Origin: Octopus vulgaris
Taxonomy: Eukaryota
Reading direction: 5' to 3'
Length of the DNA: 64,000 nucleotides
NCBI GenBank assembly: GCA_951406725.2
Contig: OX597831.1
Location: 74,400,001-74,464,000, forward strand
In this document: positions 2,991 to 58,533 of the stretch, piece after piece
How positions within the stretch are numbered: position 1 is the first letter of the stretch
Layout: the number at the start of each line of letters is the position of its first letter
Notes under the pieces: generated by a model
Seen by the model: the letters and a program-made list of their open reading frames with translations, nothing else
What the model was told of the DNA's origin: nothing
Database searches by the model: none
Made by a program: the position numbers and the translations under genes

Positions 2991-3405
2991 CTAAAAGAAA
3001 CACGAATCTTTTGCCTATGTTCGTTTTAACATTTAGGGAAAAGGGTTGGACGAACCGAATTATTTTCCTAGATCTATTCTTCGGTTTATTTCTATAAATC
3101 GTACTATTACTAGAAAGATAATAAGTCGATTAATAAAAAAATATTTTGAGACGTTAACGTGTTTTAACACAACCAACACATATGATTAGTTCATAATGGT
3201 CAAATGTTTGTAATGTACATTAGCTCACTCCCTCCATCAAATCCAGGTACACGATGTAGCACCATGTCAAGTGTTGAAGTGATCGCAGATTGAGATGAAG
3301 TGGTTTGTTCAAGAATGCAACAGGAATTGGAACCACGATCTCCCGATCATGAGTGCAGCATCATAATCATCGCCACGGCACACACACACCACACACACAC
3401 ACACC

Positions 3406-3467
<62 letters not shown>

Positions 3468-3476
3468 CATATATAC

Positions 3477-3508
<32 letters not shown>

Positions 3509-3602
3509 CAGAAATATATACATATATATAGGTATATACACATATACAAATACACACGTTCACACTCACACACACACACACACATACTCATATGCACACA
3601 CG

Positions 3603-3650
<48 letters not shown>

Positions 3651-3687
3651 GTATGTATATGTATATATATATATGTATATGTATATA

Positions 3688-3754
<67 letters not shown>

Positions 3755-4292
3755 ATGTATGTATATATGTATGAATATATGCATGTGTCTATAAGCATCA
3801 GTGTGTATGAGCTGTGAAGCTGGAGACGACGTTCTCTTCCAGTATCTTGTTTGTTGGTTGGGCGGGAAATTACAAATTCACAACTGTGGCTTCTACTATT
3901 TTCCCATTTCTCCAAAGGCTACGGTCTTTGATCTGATACAGGATGATGGCATTATCAAAAACTAATTTCCGATGTAGTGTTTGGGCGGATCAGAGCTGTT
4001 GTGATCATAAAACTCTCTCTCTCATTCCATCTCTCATTCTCTCATTCTCTCCTCTTCTCCCTGCACTGTCAGACGCCAAATGAAAGCTCGTACATGTTTC
4101 TGCAATACAAAATACTATTTTAGTTAAGTCAAATCTTTCATGTGGCACACGAATTTATGAGATCTCATTGGTTATTTACCGAAGAAAGTACTACGATACG
4201 AAGTCATCGGAAGTCGAGAATATTGGTTTCAATTAACTGATGCACTATATGCCTGTAAATACATCCCCTCTACCTACCTGACTCTCTGTCTG

Positions 4293-4293
<1 letters not shown>

Positions 4294-4367
<74 letters not shown>

Positions 4368-4525
4368 GTGTCTATCCATGTATGTATGTATGTATGTATG
4401 TATGTATGTATGTATGTATGTATGTATGTATCTATCTATCTATCTATTTACCTGTTTGTTTGTCTGTCTGTCTGTCTCTGTCTATTTATCTATCTACCTA
4501 CCTACCTACCTACCTACCTACCTAC

Positions 4526-4570
<45 letters not shown>

Positions 4571-4843
4571 CTTCAATCTATCTATCTATCTATATATCTA
4601 TCTATCTATCTATCTATCCTTCAATCTATCTATCTATCTATATATCTATCTATCTATCTATCTATCCATGTATGTATGTATGTATGTATGTATGTATGTA
4701 TCTATCTATCTATCCATGTATGTATGTATGTATGTATGTATGTATGTATGTATCTATCTATCTATCTATCTATCCATGTATGTATGTATGTATGTATGTA
4801 TGTATGTATGTATGTATGTATGTATGTATGTATCTATCTATCT
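4294..4843. repeat. Compound (TATC)n/(TATG)n/(TACC)n microsatellite
   Basis: Directly visible tetranucleotide arrays. Confidence 0.95.
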
Positions 4844-5236
4844 ATGGGTGAATGTAGCAAAGATGGGTGAATGTAGCAAGGATGGCACGTATGAATGACG
4901 AAGCCACCTTGACTATGATTCTATGAACCGTAAAAATTAATACAGAGAGTTGCTTATTTGCAAAAAAAAAAGAAATATAACATGTGACTTAATTGACCGA
5001 GGTTACCGTGGTCTTTTCCGTAGGCTTTTCCTTCCACGGGTAAACCTCACCTGTCCTCCCCTTTACACTTCATATTGACATTTCTGTGATTACGATCCCT
5101 ATTGATAAACTTTTTTTCCTCTCCCCTTTTCTTTTTTTTTTCCCTCCCCCCCCCCCCTTTTTTTACCCCCAAAAGAAAAGCTCTACCTTGTAATTTGTTC
5201 TGTCTGTGTGCAGCCCTGTGTGGCTAATAAAGAAAC
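4844..5236 (+). mobile_element. 3' fragment of a Tx1/L1-like LINE
   Basis: Short ORF end RWVNVARMARMNDEATLTMIL*, pyrimidine-rich 3' UTR and terminal AATAAAGAAA. Sits in a TATC/TATG array. Clade assignment is inference. Confidence 0.5.
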
Positions 5237-5765
5237 GTATCTATGCAGATCTCTGTCTCTCCCTCTTTCTACAGACACACACGCACACACACACTGACGC
5301 ACACGCACACACTGATGTACGCGGACAGACACAGACACACACACTTACACACACACACCTCGTTGGGATTTACAAGTATGTAGAATACGCACGTATCAGA
5401 TTATATTTTTACATTGTATTTCTGGTGAACAGGAGGGTTCATTTGCATGTATATGTAGGTACAGAAACTTAAACGCACATAAGATATTTCGTGTGTGCGC
5501 GCGCGTATTTGTGGGGGGGTGAACAATATCTATTGTACAAAAAACACAGGGTAAATCAGAAAAAAGAGGAACTAATTTAAACATTAAAAATCCTCACTTT
5601 GGGTTAAATAAGAATGTAGATACGTTGTCATTGTCTGCTATGCTATTGATATGGGAAAAAGGGGGAAATCTCGTTTAACAGTCTGTTTACCGCTTCTCAG
5701 AAAGAAACTGTCCTCGGATTCCTTCACCAATCAATAGCATAGATCAGATGATATATAAATAAATA

Positions 5766-8907: not shown

Positions 8908-9280
8908 GACACGCCGGGCGAAATGCTTAGCGGTATTTCGTCTGCCGTTACGTTCTGAGTTCAAATTCCGCCGAGGTCGACTTTGCCTTTCATCCTTTCA
9001 GGGTCGATAAATTAAGTACCAGTTACGCACTGTGGTCGATGTAATCGACTTAATACCTATGTCTGTCCTTGTTTGTCCCCTCTATGTTTAGCCCCTTGTG
9101 GGTAATAAAGAAATAGGTATTTCTGAGTTCAAATTCCGCCGAGGTCGACTTTGCCTTTCATCCTTTTAGGGTCGATAAATTAAGTACCAGTTACGCACTG
9201 TGGTCGATATAATCGACTTAATCCGTTTGTCTGTCCTTGTTTGTCCCCTGTATGTTTAGCCCCTTGTGGGCAATAAATAA
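8908..9280 (+). mobile_element. SINE family B, head-to-tail double
   Basis: Two body/tail units joined at AAATA|GGTATTT. Confidence 0.88.
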
Positions 9281-9337
<57 letters not shown>

Positions 9338-11382: not shown

Positions 11383-11546
11383 GGCGCAGGAGTGGCTGTG
11401 TGGTAAGTAGCTTGCTAACCAACCACATGGTTGCGGGTTCAGTCCCACTGCGTGGCATCTTGGGCAAAGTGTCTTCTGCTATAGCCCCGGGCCGACCAAT
11501 GCCTTGTGAGTGGATTTGGTAGACGGAAACTGAAAGAAGCCTGTCG

Positions 11547-11634
<88 letters not shown>

Positions 11635-11739
11635 GTTCCCACTGCGTGGCATCTTGGGCAAGTGTCTTCTGCTATAGCCCCGGGCCGACCAATGCCTTGT
11701 GAGTGGATTTGGTAGACGGAAACTGAAAGAAGCCTGTCG

Positions 11740-11827
<88 letters not shown>

Positions 11828-12038
11828 TGTGTCTGTGTTTGTCCCCCTAGCATTGCTTGACAACCGATGCTGGTGTGTTTACGTCCCCGTCACTTAGCGG
11901 TTCGGCAAAAGAGACCGATAGAATAAGTACTGGGCTTACAAAGAATAAGTCCCGGGGTCGATTTGCTCGACTAAAGGTGGTGCTCCAGCATGGCCGCTGT
12001 CAAATGACTGAAACAAGTAAAAGAGTAAAAGAGTAAAA
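11383..12038 (+). mobile_element. SINE family A with internal ~195-bp tandem duplication
   Basis: A-box TGGCTGTGTGG and B-box GGTTCAGTCCC; the segment from TCCCACTGCGTGG to the (TG)n tract occurs twice. Confidence 0.92.
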
Positions 12039-16877: not shown

Positions 16878-17576
16878 ATCTATTCGTGTTGTGACAATTC
16901 ATATTGCTTCAAAAGTGACAGTTAACGTCTCTGTACAAAGCCGAGCTGTAGGTGAGTACGCACTTCACAAAGATGTCCATGACAATTACTCTAACTTTAC
17001 CCGCGACCTCACTTCCATCGTAACTCTCAACACAAACATCGAACAGCGAGAAGTCTTTCTTTTCGACTCAGCAAAAGTCAGCAAAATATAAGAATGTCTT
17101 CCTAGCGTTCATGACAATTTCGGTGCTGAAGTCGCTAATCTTAGCGAATTGTAGAAATCCACGATATGGAATTGGATCGAAGCATTGGGTACTTTGTTCT
17201 TAAGAATGCAGACAACGGCAGCGCTGCAGTTCCATTCGACTAATCCATCGAGTTAACGATAGTCTTACGTGATCTGCACTGACCCATGGAAATAATCACC
17301 ACTTACCATCCAGTGGCATCGATTGCGTTTCGAAGTTATGACCGTCTTCCAGCGCTGAATCGTTCGAAAGATCAGAACCTTTTCGCTTCTATGGAAATTT
17401 TAGCCATGAAAATCGCAATAAAAATAAAAATTCAAATATGTATGTATGTAACTATGCATGCATGCATGCGTGTGTGTATTTTGTTCCTGTATGTATATAC
17501 GAGTGCGCCTGTATATGCATGTATAAGTACATATATATTTACACACACACGCACACACACATATATATACATATAT

Positions 17577-17721
<145 letters not shown>

Positions 17722-17830
17722 AGGATAAAAAAATTTTCGAAAAAAAAAATTTTATCAATGGGAAGCATTTTAAAAAATACCTTTAAAGGTTAAATTTATA
17801 AATAACTTATAAAATAAGTGAAAAAAAATT

Positions 17831-18029
17831 CTAATGCCAAATATGCCGGAAATAGACAAAATTGTCAATAACCATAATAATGAGGAGAAAATTCTTATGA
17901 ATTAACTCTGAAATTGGGACCAATACGGTAATAACGGAATTTTTTAGAAATTTCTTTCGGTTTGTTTCGAGACGCATAAATTATTATGGTTATTGACAAT
18001 TTTGTCTATTTTCGGCATATTTGGCATTA
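17831..18029. repeat. ~50-bp inverted repeat in a (TA)n-embedded element
   Basis: CTAATGCCAAATATGCCG..CCATAATAAT (17831-17881) is nearly the exact reverse complement of 17980-18029. Confidence 0.9.
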
Positions 18030-18059
18030 GGATTTTTCTTTTGCCCTTGTTTTATAAGT

Positions 18060-18173
<114 letters not shown>

Positions 18174-18525
18174 TATGTGTGTATGTGTGTATCTCTCTCT
18201 CTCTTTCTATCTGTATATATATATGTATATGTGTGTGAGTGTGTGTGTGTATGTATGTATATATATATATATATATATAGACAGATAGATACATGCATAC
18301 ATATATACATACATACACATATGCATACATGATGTGTAGTGTTTGTGTATACACTCACGTGCACATGCAACTACACACGCGCTCTCACTATGCCAGAGAC
18401 GGAAGTGGCCATCAGTGTGATGTTGTTTACACCCAAACAAATGTAAAGCAAATAATGACTACAAGTTGAAACAATAAACAGACTTCGTTTATTTAATGGG
18501 GTTTCTTTAAGCAAAATAATGCCAG

Positions 18526-18586
<61 letters not shown>

Positions 18587-18859
18587 TTGCTATTACAGAA
18601 ACGAAAAAAAAAAACGAAGGGAGGCAACTAACAGGAAATTAATGAAGGGGAGACCCCTTCTATTCAGCATATTCTTTTGATGGGAAAATATAAGCATTGT
18701 TGTCTTAAAATGAGTGTGAAACGAGAGGGTGTGGGTGTGGGGTAGACAAGGGCTTCTTCACAGGAAATTAGATTTAGTTAAATATGACACATAAATAAAT
18801 AAATAGATAGATAGATTGATAGATGGATAAGCACACAAAATCACATTTATATATACTGT

Positions 18860-18931
<72 letters not shown>

Positions 18932-19071
18932 GGTGGGGTTGTGTCGACCGCACGTGGAGAAATGATAGGCAAGGAAAAATTATAAAAAGACAGAATGCTA
19001 AATTGGAGGTAAATTTTAATGAAAATGGATGTATGGAAGAATTTTTTTAAAACCTTTTCTTTTCACCTTAC

Positions 19072-19113
19072 AATTCTTGAAAAGTCGCATTGCGACGAAA
19101 ACCGGTTTGAATT
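19072..19113 (+). ncRNA. Minimal type I hammerhead-ribozyme fold with U3-A8 core
   Basis: AATTC-TTGAAAA-GTCGC(ATT)GCGAC-GAA-AACCGGTT-T-GAATT: perfect stems I and II and a palindromic stem III. Lies between inverted arms at about 18971-19043 and 19135-19207. Confidence 0.65.
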
Positions 19114-19205
19114 AATATATATATATTTATTTTTAATTTTCCATACATCAATTTTCATTAAAGTTTACCTTCAATTTAGCATTCTGCCTTTTTATAATTT
19201 TTCCT

Positions 19206-19266
<61 letters not shown>

Positions 19267-19610
19267 GTCTGGGGAAAGTCATTCTATTTTGGTGCCTTAT
19301 AATTTAACACACTCACCGGTCTGGTTTCCACTCATTTACTTATTTATTTTCCCTAAAGTTTCGTTGCATCTTGCAACCTTTTCAATAGTTGTGGATTCTG
19401 TCTATTATTCAAGCAGCTTGACTAACATAGCTTGACAACCGATGCTGGTGTGTTTACGTCCCCGTAACTCATCGGTTCGGCAAAAGAGACCAACAGAATA
19501 AGTATTAGGCTTACAAAGAATAAGTCCTGGGGTCAATTTACTCGATTATGGCCGCAGTCAAATGATTGAAACAAGTAAAAGAAAAAACAATAAAAAAGAA
19601 CATATATATG

Positions 19611-19644
<34 letters not shown>

Positions 19645-20413
19645 CATAAATATGAATGTGTGTATGTGTGTGTGTATGAGTATGTGCGAGTAATGAATAT
19701 ATGTATGATGAGGGAAAGGCTCAATCGTGACTAAGCTAGTACACTTTTACAGTTGGATAAACAGGACAGAAAAGAACTTAAAATACAAACCCGCAAAGGA
19801 ATGTCAGGCAAAGTCGACATCAGGGGAATTTGAACTCAGGACATAAAGAACAATCCTGTTACGCATTTTGTTCGACGCGCTAACACATCTACCAGTTTGC
19901 TGTTCTGGAAAGAGGGAGAATAAAACCGAAACTTGTCCAGAATTGTCGCCGGACGTAACTTATACCTCATTTCGGAAATCGAAACCGTATCACTGGAGTT
20001 AGCCAGTAACTTTCTTCTCTTACTTTACATTTCCCTCTTCTTTCTCCTCTCCGCTTTCTCTTTTCCTTCTCTCCCTTCTTTCCTACTTTCTTTTCTCTTC
20101 TCTTTCTTTCCAGTTTCTTCACATCTTTTCTTTCACCCCTCTTTCTCTTCTCTCCTATTTCCCTTATCTATCTCGTCTACCCCTCTTTATCCCTCCTCCT
20201 TCTGCTCTTCCTCTTCCTCTTTGCACCAAGAGACCCCCAACTATGTCTGTTCCATTCCATTGGTCAACAACACCAATCAATGTCTAATTACTCTTAAACT
20301 TGTCACTCTTCCAAATAAATTAATCAAACAAATTAATGGCCACCATTAAACCATCCACACCGCCATTCTTTCTGCGAAGATACAAACACGTGTGTATGTG
20401 CCTATATATGTAT

Positions 20414-20455
<42 letters not shown>

Positions 20456-20495
20456 CTGTGCTTCAGAGAAAATGCGTTAATGTATATGAGTATGA

Positions 20496-20559
<64 letters not shown>

Positions 20560-20574
20560 ATGTATTTGTGTGTG

Positions 20575-20752
20575 TATGTACATATATACATAAATGCGTT
20601 TGTGTATATACACACTCGGACACACATACAGATATACGTGTGTTTATCTATCTATATATATATATATATAGATAGATAGATAAACACACGTATATCTGTA
20701 TGTGTGTCCGAGTGTGTATATACACAAACGCATTTATGTATATATGTACATA
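20575..20752. repeat. Near-perfect palindrome centred on (TA)n
   Basis: ~80-bp arms are reverse complements apart from one GATA unit. Confidence 0.9.
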
Positions 20753-20883
<131 letters not shown>

Positions 20884-21638
20884 GTGTGTGTGTGTGTGTG
20901 TATATATACATATATGTGACTGCAAATGTGTATATGCCCAAATATATATGTGTGTGCGTATGAATATATATATATAAATGACAATTTATTTTGTACATTT
21001 TGTTCTTTTTCTTGTTTCCTCTTTGCTAATCCTGATATTGATATTGTTGTTGTTGTTGTTGTTGTTATTGTTATTGTTGTCAATCTCCTCTCATCCAACC
21101 AACCTATTCCATACAACCACCAGCCTTGTTATCACAGCTTCAGTAAACAAACCAATCACATAATGATATCAAAATAAACAGAGAGATAATCAATCACACA
21201 GCGATATCAAAACGTAACATTCAAAAACCAACACACACCTATTTAGACCGTCGCCATAGCAGCTGCTGTGTGATGCGGGCTAATCCATCGCCTCGGGATA
21301 ACCCAGCATTTGTGATCAAGGAATGTTTAATTTTAGCAAGCGTCTAACAAGGACAGGCCTATTGGATCACATATGCCAGCACCGTCAAGAGAATCCATGA
21401 ACTCATTGAGAATGGATCCATATTTTCCGATCTAGTCTGACTTTTTGTCGAAGACAAGGTTTTACGAGCGCATGCATCATGTGTGTGTGTGTGTGTGTGT
21501 TTGTGTGTGTGTGCGTGCGTGCACGTGTGTGTGCGTGTATAAATATATTTAAAAACAACTTCAAGTTTTTCAAATTCATGTGCCTTTTCAAACAAATTCT
21601 ATATTTTTTCCTGCGTGGGAATACATCTCTTCTTTCCA

Positions 21639-28617: not shown

Positions 28618-29972
28618 AGGCGGCAAGCTGGCAGAGTCGTTAGCACGCCGAGTAAAATGCTTAGCGGTACTTTGTCTGTTTCTACGTTCAGAGTTCAAAT
28701 TCCGCCGAGGTCGACTTTGCCTTTCATCCTTTCGGGGTTGATTAAATAAGTACCAGTTACGCACTGGGATCGATATAATCGAATTAATCCGTTTGTCTGT
28801 CCTTGTTTGCTTCCTCTGTGTTTAGCCCCTTGTGGGTAGTAAAGAAATAGGTATTTCGTCTGCCGCTACGTTCTGAGTTCAAATTCCGCCGAGGTCGACT
28901 TTGCCTTTCATCCTTTTCGGGGTCGATAAATTAAATACCAGTTGCATACTTGGGGTCGATCTAATCGACTGCCCCCCCTCCCAAAAAATAACTTTGGGGT
29001 CTTGTGCCTAGAGTAGAAAAGAATATTGTTATCATTGTTACTAAGGCGGTGAGCTGGCAGAGTCGTTAGCACGCCGGACAAAAATGCTTAGTGGCATTTC
29101 GTCCGTCTTTACGTTTTGAATTCAAATTCTACCGAGGTCGATTTTGCCTTTCATCCTTTCGGGGTCGATGACTTCTGGGTTTGATGCAATGCACTAGTCC
29201 CTGCCCCACCCCAACACCAAAAGAAATTTCAGACCTTGTGCCTAAAGTAGAAAAAAATCATCATTATTATTTTCCCCTTTGGCCCCATGGATATATCTTA
29301 TCCCCACCTTCCCGCCATCGGCAATTCTTATATAAACATATGGACGGCACAAAAAAACTATATAAAACCCATCAACAACTCAATGAATCGCAAATATAAT
29401 AAAACATGGTATTTATTTATTGCCCACAAGGGGCTAAACATAGAGGGGGACATACAAAGGGATTAAGTCGATTACATCGACCCCAGTGCGTAACTGGTAC
29501 TTATCGACCCCGAAAGGATGAAAGGCAAAGTCGACCTTGGTGGAATTTGAACTCAGAACAGCGGCAGATGAAATACCTATTTCTTTACTACCCACAAGGG
29601 GCTAAACACAGAGGGGACAGACAAACGGATTAAGTCGATTACATCGACCCCAGTGCGTAACTGGTACTTATCGACCCCGATAGGATGAAAGGCAAAGTCG
29701 ACCTCGGCGGAATTTGAACTCAGAACGTAAAGACAGACGAAATACCTATTTCTTTACTACCCACAAGGGGCTAAACATAGAGGGAACAAACAAGGACAGA
29801 CAAAGGGATTAAGTCGATTACATCGACCCCAGTGCGTAACTGGTACTTATTGGCCCCGATAGGATGAAAGGCAAAGTCGATCTCGACGGAATTTGAACTC
29901 ACAACGTAACGCAGACGAAATACCGCTAAGCATTTCGCCCGGCATGCTAACCATTCTGCCAGCTCACCATCC
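28618..29972. mobile_element. SINE family B cluster (plus-strand tandem and minus-strand multimer)
   Basis: Plus copies at about 28618-29020 and 29044-29170; minus-strand array of three tail units at about 29410-29972. Confidence 0.88.
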
Positions 29973-53317: not shown

Positions 53318-54330
53318 AGACAGCTTAGTAGTTGAGGTATTCGGCTCATGATTGTAAGGTCACAAGTTCAATACCTGGTGGCGCAACGTGCCCTTTAGCA
53401 AGACACTTTATTTTCACATTGCTCCAGTCCACTCAGCTGGCAAAAATGAGCTGTACCTGTCATTCAACAGGGGCCAGCCTTGTCACACTCTGTGTCATGC
53501 TGAATCTCCCTAAGAACTACATTAAGGGTACATGTTTCTGTGGTGAGCTGGCAGAAACGTTAGCACACCCGGTGAAATGCTTAGCGGTATTTTGTCTGCC
53601 ACTACGTTGTGAGTTCAAAACCGCCGAGGTCGACTTTGCCTTTCATCCTTTCGGGGTCGATAAATTAAGTACCAGTTACGCACTGGGGTCGATGTAATCG
53701 ACTTAATACCTATGTCTGTCTTTGTTTGTCTCCTCTATGTTTAGCCCCTTGTGGGTAATAAAAAAATAGGTATTTCGTCTGCTGCTACATTCTGAGTTCA
53801 AATTCCACTGCGGTCGACTTTGCCTTTCATCCTTTCGGGGTCGATTAAATAAGTACCAGTTATGCACTGGGGTCGATATAATCAACTTAATCCGTTTGTT
53901 TGTCCTTGTTTGTCCCCTCTATGTTTAGCCCCTTGTGGGTAGTAAAGAAATAGGTACATGTGTCTGTGGAGTACTCAGCCACTTGCACATTAATTCCACA
54001 AGCAGGTGGTTCTGTTGATCTGTTGACCAGTGCGGGGTCATTCCGAAAAGCTCTACCTGCGACGATTTCATCTCAATCGAAGGAGAGGAGCTTTCTCCGT
54101 CCGGGTTGCGGATCCGTGGAACAAGCTGCCAGACGAGATGGTGAAGATGCCGACGACCGCTTTGTTCAAAGCCTCCCTGGACCTCAAGTGGCCTGAACTC
54201 TTTACATGAACACCACCCTGTACTTAACTCCATGTCCCCCTACATGGCCTTGCTATTTGCTTTTGAGCCAAATTAACTAACTAACTAACTAACTAACTAA
54301 CTGGAACATTCATTGTTGTAACCGATGAAG
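53318..54330 (+). mobile_element. SINE family D carrying nested family B and CR1 insertions
   Basis: tRNA-like head at about 53318. Family B double insert has TSD GGTACATGT(T/G)TCTGTGG at 53527-53543 and 53953-53969. The family D tail resumes after the CR1 piece. Confidence 0.8.
54030..54302 (+). mobile_element. CR1-clade LINE 3' fragment
   Basis: RGHSEKLYLRRFHLNRRRGAFSVRVADPWNKLP with a (TAAC)n tail. Confidence 0.85.
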
Positions 54331-56664: not shown

Positions 56665-58533
56665 TCATCATCATCATCATCATCATTTAACGTCCGCTTT
56701 CCATGCTAGCATGGGTTGGACGGTTCAACTGGGGTCTGGGGAGCCCGAAAGCTGCACCAGTCCAGTCAGATCTGGCAGTGTTTCTACAGCTGGATGCCCT
56801 TCCTAACGCCAACCACTCCGAGAGTGTAGTGGGTGATTTTATGTGCCACCGACACAGGTGCCAGACGAGGCTGGCAAACGGCCACGCTCGGATGGTGTTT
56901 TTTATGTGCCACCGACACAGGTGCCAGACGAGGCTGGCAGACGGCCACGCTCGGATGGTGTTTTTATGTGCCACCGACACAAGTGCCAGATGAGGCTGGC
57001 AAACGGCCACGATCGGATGGTGTTTGTTACGTGCCCACAGCACGGAGGCCAGTCGATGCGGTACTGGCTACGGCCACGTTCGGATGGTTTTCTTGTGTGC
57101 CACGTGCCACCGGCACTGGTACCACAAAGATACAAATTCCATTGATGTTCATCTATTTTGATTTGTTTTGATTTGATTTGATTTTCACTTGCCTCAACAG
57201 GTCTTCACAAGTGTCACAAGAAGGAAGGTATGCACAGGTGGACTGACTACGTCCCAGGTAGGGGCCACAGGTTATGGCCTGACTAGTCTTGCCGGGTCTT
57301 CGGATGGTGTTTTTATGTGCCACCGACACAGGTGCCAGATGAGGCTGGCGAACGGCCACGATCGGATGGTGTTTGTTACGTGCCCACAGCACGGAGGCCA
57401 GTCGGTGCGGTACTAGCTACGGCCACGTTCGGATGGTTTTCTTGTGTGCCACCGGCACTTTACCACAAAGATACAAATTCCATTGATGTTCATCTATTTT
57501 GATTTGTTTTGATTTGATTTGATTTTCACTTGCCTCAACAGGTCTTCACAAGTGTCACAAGAAGGAAGGTATGCACAGGTGGACTGACTACGTCCCAGGT
57601 AGGGGCCACAGGTTATGGCCTGACTAGTCTTGCCGGGTCTTCGGATGGTGTTTTTATGTGCCACCGACACAGGTGCCAGATGAGGCTGGCGAACGGCCAC
57701 GATCGGATGGTGTTTGTTACGTGCCCACAGCACGGAGGCCAGTCGGTGCGGTACTGGCTACGGCCACGTTCGGATGGTTTTCTTGTGTGCCACCGGCACT
57801 GGTACCACAAAGATACAAATTCCATTGATGTTCATCTATTTTGATTTGTTTTGATTTGATTTGATTTGATTTGTTTTGATTTCATTTTGATTTTATTTTG
57901 ATTTTCACTTGCCTCAACAGGCCTTCACAAGTATCACAAGGAGGAAGGTATGCACAGGTGGACTGACTACGTTCCAGGTAGGGGCCATGGGATATGGCCT
58001 GACTAGTCTTGCCGGGTCTTCGGATGGTGTTTTTATGTGCCACCGACACAGGTGCTAGATGAGGCTGGCGAACGGCCACGATCGGATGGTGTTTGTTATG
58101 TGCCCACAGCACGATGGCCAGTCGATGCGGTACTGACTACGGCCACGTTCGGATGGATTTCTTGTGTGCCACAGGCACTGGTACCACAAAGATACAAATT
58201 CCATTGATGTTCATCTATTTTGATTTGATTTGATTTGATTTTCACTTGCCTCAACAGGTCTTCACAAGTGTCACAAGAAGGAAGGTATGCACAAGTGGAC
58301 TGAGTAGTCTTGCCGGGTGTTCGGAAGGTGTTTTTATGTGCCACCGACACAGGTGCCAGATGAGGCTGGCGAACGGCCATGATCGGATGGTGTTTGTTAC
58401 GTGCCCACAGCACGGAGGCCGGTCGATGCGGAACTGGCTATGGCCACGTTCGGATGGTTTTCTTGTGTGCCACCGGCACTGGTACCACAAAGATACAGAT
58501 TCCATTGATGTTCATCTATTTTGATTTGTTTTG

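Follow-up and report, generated by a model that had tools for sequence, protein, structure and literature searches.

Hammerhead motifs and element ends in the window

The window, a stretch of 64 kb of Octopus vulgaris DNA, contains two short repetitive elements that carry hammerhead motifs on opposite strands and share a (TA)n microsatellite at their 3' sides (Table 1). Motif 1 reads, in order, AATTC, TTGAAAA, the two strands of stem II (GTCGC/GCGAC), GAA, AACCGGTT, T and GAATT; stem I (AATTC/GAATT) and stem II are each of 5 bp, the palindrome AACCGGTT occupies 19100-19107, and U17 is the base at 19108. On re-reading the letters, we found the fold given for this motif in the preliminary description (stems I and II, UUGAAAA and a palindromic stem III) to be exact. 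A scan of the 64-kb window with a strict U3-A8 pattern returns motif 1 as its sole match, the chance level being a mean of 0.02 matches over 100 local dinucleotide shuffles. An Rfam scan of positions 17000-21500 gave 130 matches at E<=10, none of them to a hammerhead and with the miRNA matches driven by the microsatellite, so that standard models do overlook these motifs, in agreement with the earlier expectation for searches built on CUGANGA. Motif 2 shares the UUGAAAA core and has a defective stem III, as had been recognized, but an unpaired G that follows UUGAAAA, ahead of stem II, had been overlooked and stem I amounts to just 3 bp. The strict scan does not pick up motif 2. Palindromic stems III are present in motif 1 and in most family-2 copies (AAUU), whereas the corresponding letters of motif 2 in the window, ACU, are not palindromic.

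Table 1. Features of the two elements and their flanks, in positions of the window
Feature	Position	Strand	Remarks
(TA)n target microsatellite, left flank	18848..18928	.	
Family-1 Penelope-like (PLE) end, inverted 5'-truncated arm	18926..19051	-	carries a 'tail' of ~50 bases
Family-1 PLE terminal repeat, forward arm without tail	19045..19207	+	'short' 3' end
Hammerhead motif 1, type I minimal	19072..19113	+	predicted cut after 19108
Core strand UUGAAAA of motif 1	19077..19083	+	U3 = 19077, A8 = 19082
Self-complementary AACCGGUU, predicted dimer stem III	19100..19107	+	duplex -10.1 kcal/mol
(TA)n microsatellite, 3' flank common to both elements	19208..19260	.	
Family-2 PLE (subfamily 2a) 5'-truncated end	19255..19411	-	'short' 3' end
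Hammerhead motif 2	19353..19388	-	3-bp stem I, UUGAAAA + unpaired G, 6-bp stem II, damaged stem III

The two elements had been described as mini-elements embedded in (TA)n; the (TA)n setting was correct, but they are the 5'-truncated ends of longer PLEs, and both window copies are short and have no coding part. The inverted arm of element 1 begins ~30 bases beyond the predicted cut on its 3' side, and hence contains no hammerhead, while the forward arm retains 64 bases on the 5' side of this cut before it is truncated; element 1 as a whole is a near-perfect hairpin of 240 bases (-106 kcal/mol). Both window copies are probably inert, motif 2 because it is damaged and motif 1 because it has no same-strand partner and would form part of this hairpin's loop. 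Elsewhere in the window, repeats of 167-379 bases, probably of SINE type, occur in tandem at 8953-9282, 11443-11828, 29410-29924, 53586-53956 and 56951-58241.

Penelope-like host elements

Both stretches are repetitive in the genome that we searched (2.8 Gb in ~30 large contigs), with 1,844 first-look candidates for family 1 and 2,273 for family 2, 40 of which were scored in each case. In both families the 3' end falls at either of two fixed sites ~50-60 bases apart, whereas the 5' end is variable; an inverted arm is often present, and the flanks are (TA)n. Among 41 family-1 arms, 23 have the short end, 17 the tail and 1 another end; the respective numbers for 78 family-2 arms are 39, 37 and 2. 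The PLE pattern of 5' truncation, an inverted arm and an optional tail at one end is therefore seen in both families as well as in the window copy.

In longer copies, the family-1 ends lie ~650 bases behind frames that contain an RT thumb, a CxxxxCxxC linker and a GIY-YIG domain. Searching the genome with the family-1 protein gave 11,340 candidates; among the 150 that were scored are many open frames of more than 700 aa, and YLDD (RT) and GIY-YIG are found in one and the same frame. In three of 20 fetched stretches (L100, L103 and L106) the hammerhead motif flanks the coding frames on both sides, ~4.6 kb apart; in these young relatives the coding frames are open over 753-782 aa, and both repeats carry a UUGACAA motif. 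Direct terminal repeats that each carry a hammerhead were thus seen in family 1 (in these three stretches), and none was seen for family 2, in which YVDD and GIY-YIG occur in broken frames and, among 30 loci chosen for their coding stretch, 17 have the motif behind RT and GIY-YIG. That two different elements underlie motifs 1 and 2, as had been supposed, is borne out by the fact that they are unrelated at the DNA level and that an alignment of their proteins over 378 columns shows 21% identity. The cysteine linkers preceding GIY-YIG, CARSNCGTC in family 1 and CTNDNCMVC in family 2, correspond to the CX2-5CxxC linker of Neptune/Nematis elements. Pfam scores for GIY-YIG and RT fall under the curated cut-offs in both families (E 0.002 and 0.0006 for family 1), and because those for GIY-YIG are just under the cut-off, the naming as PLEs rests also on motifs and layout; a PDB sequence search with the family-1 protein returned nothing meaningful. 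Taken as a whole, we regard it as likely that motifs 1 and 2 represent hammerheads from the terminal repeats of two distantly related Penelope-like families.

Several further observations were made on family 1. Full-length elements (L103:1794-2886 and 3299-5557) have a separate upstream frame of 367 aa that could be assigned to no Pfam family clearly, followed by an RT-EN frame that lacks an early ATG; this arrangement suggests an intron or a frameshift. In locus L264, the inversion junction lies inside the stem II hairpin, a position that suggests fold-back priming. Finally, four family-1 ends stand in tandem, ~260-280 bases apart, at C1:94342383-94343230, resembling a retrozyme array.

The 3-8 pair in the two families

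We counted exact family-1 matches genome-wide for the U3-A8 pattern and for patterns in which both letters 3 and 8 were changed. There are 860 matches to U3-A8, none to a reversed-pattern control, and none to any both-letter change, C3-G8 included. Moreover, U3-A8 is present in all 63 family-1 motifs of the fetched loci, which had been selected with a U-A pattern allowing 5 substitutions. As judged from these genomic copies, U3-A8 is the norm of family 1 and not private decay, in accord with the proposal that it represents a family consensus.

Twelve family-1 motifs picked by hand across subfamilies pair in 94% of cells, with U3-A8 invariant and the core fixed, although N7 may be A, C or U and loop II varies. 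Three pairs, one in stem I and two in stem II, are changed on both sides between subfamilies, so that the stems covary, even though the number of covarying pairs did not by itself beat a shuffle (226/500) that ignores relatedness. Family 1 therefore presents the features of a minimal type I hammerhead, namely stems I and II with covariation, G10.1-C11.1 and a Watson-Crick 3-8 pair. In addition, contigs under two other species labels span the core and have no change listed there, one of them with the window-type UUGAAAA; of two further runs, one ended before the core and the other gave no alignment. The youngest family-1 lineage (L103:6203-6240 and relatives) has lost one U at the junction of stem III and the cut site, a loss after which a perfect palindrome and a U17 site cannot both be retained; in one branch of this lineage a U-U mismatch closes stem II, its open frames notwithstanding.

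Family 2 is less uniform. When positions 3, 7 and 8 are left free, 84 motifs scored by eye comprise 67 with U-A, 11 with U-G, 2 with C-G and 4 with other combinations at positions 3-8. A tree of 61 copies splits subfamily 2a, which includes the window copy and has U-A, from subfamily 2b with support of 100/97. Among the best 30 loci of 2b (L115-L127 and L181-L210), 17 have U-G, 8 have U-A, 2 have C-G (one being the query) and 3 have others. The compensatory 3-8 pair that had been claimed for both elements thus holds in family 1 and in 2a, where it is of the Watson-Crick type, but not strictly for family 2, given that 2b mostly has U3-G8. Mean pairwise distances are 0.119 for the U-G rows of 2b (16 rows), 0.104 for its U-A rows (8 rows) and 0.093 for 2a (28 rows), and the U3-G8-rich subfamily 2b is apparently older. 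Several U-A copies of 2b share letters with 2a. The tree is unrooted and leaves the order of C-G, U-G and U-A unsettled, with the two C-G rows grouped in 38% of bootstraps; these data would nevertheless fit an origin of U-G before U-A in family 2, and the U3-G8 wobble of 2b is a possible step toward U-A.

A third family, encountered alongside the other two, has a G3-C8 core (GUGAACA followed by an unpaired G), the palindrome AAUAUU and U17, with 2,990 exact matches genome-wide. Its core is G-C in 93 of the first 100 matches listed (by eye), its ends are PLE-like (L168-L179 and L211-L240), and G3-G8 occurs in 4 of 30 longer copies; a search of the 1.5 kb around 30 longer G3-C8 copies revealed no coding partner. 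Among the first 100 listed of the longer family-3 copies, ~33 are on contig C16, a strong local enrichment. Three copies of another fold, with UUGAAAA plus U, lie 3.4 kb apart at C2:171.239-171.246 Mb (L165-L167), back to back with a family-3 copy, and are the only matches to this fold in the genome. Natural G3-C8 or U3-G8 cores may have been described already by Lunse et al. in 2017 and by Przybilski and Hammann in 2007.

Insertion junctions at the predicted cut

Occasional copying of cut RNA would leave insertions that begin at the first base after U17. We examined this prediction in young family-1 relatives rather than in the subfamily of the window copy. The background rate was taken from 30 young copies chosen solely by the DNA 3' of the predicted cut, of which 2 start at 0 and -2, 15 start further upstream and 13 extend beyond 1.5 kb. 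Genome-wide, 150 copies of a first sub-subfamily read through the site and 4 matches were obtained, 3 of them true junctions, with none in a control window 8-10 bases upstream of the cut. A planned replicate in the sister sub-subfamily gave 381 copies that read through and 9 matches, 4 being true junctions, while its control window gave 3 matches, all of them variants of longer copies, and no true junction. Six of the 13 raw matches (1/4 and 5/9) were dropped as point or single-base variants of longer copies. An AT-rich control site ~150 bases upstream of the cut, intact in 24 of 30 sampled copies, gave 0 junctions.

In total, 7 of ~538 young family-1 copies (1.3%) start no more than 2 bases from the predicted cut when 0.5-1.1 would be expected, an excess with a Poisson P of ~1e-4 overall and of 0.001-0.009 for the replicate alone, albeit from small numbers and a 30-copy background. 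Three of these junctions fall exactly at the G that follows the predicted cut, a position with which the remaining four are also compatible. At +1/+2 there is one further junction together with the second arm of a locus already counted, 4 of the 6 matches at +1 being variants, and one older-type copy starts at ~-8. In motif-selected loci, which are a biased sample, there is no pile-up at the cut in older window-type copies or in family 2. A pattern requiring two non-T bases, which could not fit (TA)n flanks, gave 1 match. The junctions favour U17 over G17 as the cleavage site in the young lineage with one U fewer. Locus L272 is a single insertion in two successive pieces, both starting at the predicted cut, as if RT had re-primed.

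This junction excess is suggestive of a footprint of cleavage, as far as genomic copies can reveal one. The junctions also coincide with the border of an AT-rich sequence and with the base of a helix, however, and microhomology or RT stalling could be contributing to them.

Proposed mechanism and alternative readings

As a monomer, the hammerhead fold of motif 1 is unfavourable (-1.4 kcal/mol, compared with -6.4 kcal/mol for the best fold), and local fold energies (z -0.8 and -1.8) are not significant alone. Two AACCGGUU strands pair with -10.1 kcal/mol, and for these two reasons we propose a dimeric stem III, in which the palindromes from two repeats of one transcript would pair. The active parent motif would probably fold in this manner or with the help of the element's protein, and U3-A8 may stand in for C3-G8 as a pair of like shape. 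A small share of the parent element RNA would then be cut just before stem I, and this cut RNA may occasionally be copied by RT, run-off at the cut giving copies that start there; most insertions would derive from uncut RNA. Given the few young copies that start at the predicted cut site, the U3-A8 hammerhead of family 1 is likely to be self-cleaving. The fuller reading, that a U3-A8, U17 PLE hammerhead cuts germ-line RNA, that the cut RNA is inserted so that junctions map the cut to the base, and that the core pair of the second family moved from C-G through U-G to U-A by way of an amplifying U3-G8 wobble, is one that we put forward tentatively, at somewhat short of even chances.

The same elements might instead carry a dead or near-dead descendant of a hammerhead, kept for its shape (in RT binding, pausing or dimer formation), with junctions that arise from RT stalling or AT microhomology. 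Such an origin would account for the amplification of a U3-G8 subfamily (17/30), for the U17 sites and weak monomer folds, and for the 98.7% of young copies that read through the cut site. It would also be in keeping with the low in vitro activity of PLE hammerheads (PMC4209133) and with the finding that the Anolis ribozyme is dispensable for insertion in vitro (PMC11167929). The family-1 subfamilies, however, differ in N7, loop II and stem pairs but at none of the catalytic positions, three junctions lie exactly on the first base past the predicted cut with four more compatible, and the AT-rich control window gave none, so that we consider this explanation unlikely, if still the most serious competitor of a cleaving hammerhead.

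Small non-autonomous elements of the retrozyme or MITE kind that merely resemble PLE ends are very improbable. The short non-coding window copies, the 240-base hairpin of element 1 and the one four-copy tandem with its spacing of ~260 bases (C1:94.34 Mb) are what such elements might look like, but the 5' ends are free, the inverted arms have variable junctions without fixed terminal repeats, and longer copies run unbroken into RT and GIY-YIG frames. A classification as non-LTR retrozymes, that is, as short non-coding tandem units without an RT of their own, was rejected for this last reason, since copies extend into RT and EN frames. That the motifs arose as folds by chance in AT-rich DNA, or there by private decay from a CUGANGA hammerhead, is scarcely credible, and for motif 1 is refuted, in view of 860 exact matches against none for the reversed pattern or for C3-G8 and an expectation of 0.02 matches in the window, despite fold z-scores that are weak alone and a motif 2 that is weak in the window copy.

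Relation to known hammerheads

The idea that these motifs define an unrecognised variant family is not supported, because U3-A8 hammerheads in PLEs have been in print since 2014 (PMC4209133) and natural U3-A8 hammerheads are also reported elsewhere (PMC3088659). Minimal U3-A8 PLE hammerheads were described in the Cercyon elements of Schistosoma mansoni, with ~1,300 matches to a dedicated descriptor, in an account that also reports low in vitro rates for PLE hammerheads and proposes a dimeric stem III (Cervera and De la Pena 2014, PMC4209133). The Cercyon and octopus motifs are alike in being type I, in lying in PLE terminal repeats, and in having U3-A8, a short stem I and G10.1-C11.1; a palindromic stem III and mostly single truncated copies are likewise common to both, and an unpaired base between 9 and 10.1 in Cercyon matches that of motif 2. 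Motif 1 differs from Cercyon in having no extra base after A9, a stem II of 5 bp instead of 7-8 bp, an 8-base palindrome and another host, and the sections of the Cercyon account available to us make no mention of a U3-G8 subfamily or a junction footprint (PMC4209133).

Unlike that of the PAc (Poseidon) element of Anolis, the octopus motif precedes the first ATG by ~180 bases. Perreault's natural U3-A8 motifs are said in many cases to have ordinary stems III or tertiary contacts. Those motifs, which are active in vitro by citation (Perreault et al. 2011, PMC3088659), have the same compensatory pair and are not presented as PLE motifs in the accessible parts of that report. In Anolis PAc, the ribozyme required protein, insertion in vitro did not depend on the ribozyme, RNA ends were not detected at the cut site, and the tail was linked to the use of two start sites by RT (Frangieh et al. 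2024, PMC11167929). The octopus elements resemble PAc in having a hammerhead near the junction of repeat and ORF, 'tail' and 'short' ends, and AT-rich targets; PAc, however, is C3-G8 and lacks RNA ends at the cut, according to the sections seen of that study, whereas the octopus family is U3-A8 and a few genomic copies start there.

An inverted truncated arm, a tail at one end and (TA)n targets are known PLE features (Craig et al. 2021, PMC8557442). Neptune/Nematis-type PLEs share with both octopus families the C-terminal GIY-YIG domain, the CX2-5CxxC linker and (TA)n, the likeness being drawn from linker and layout. The canonical hammerheads given in File S2 of that work, including Hydra-1 of Octopus bimaculoides, are all C3-G8 in the portion consulted (PMC8557442), and the parts available of three further sources (PMC13282606, PMC6466107 and 10.64898/2026.07.22.740005) contain nothing on the U3-A8 variant. 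In the open-licence literature, we found no report of a junction footprint, of U3-G8 lineages or of U3-A8 PLE hammerheads in cephalopods. The U3-A8 variant is already known, and the additions made here are the host, the two families, the junction excess and the U3-G8 subfamily.

Implications

Whether PLE hammerheads cut in vivo is a question that matters, given that in vitro rates are low and that no RNA ends were seen for the Anolis element. Counting the 5' junctions of young copies offers a cheap genomic test of this question, and in this genome the predicted cut has a small surplus of them. The young family-1 elements, with their open frames and near-identical copies, are a ready substrate for assays. 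Moreover, the amplified U-A, U-G and G-C families within one genome form a natural series that bears on the importance of the 3-8 pair.
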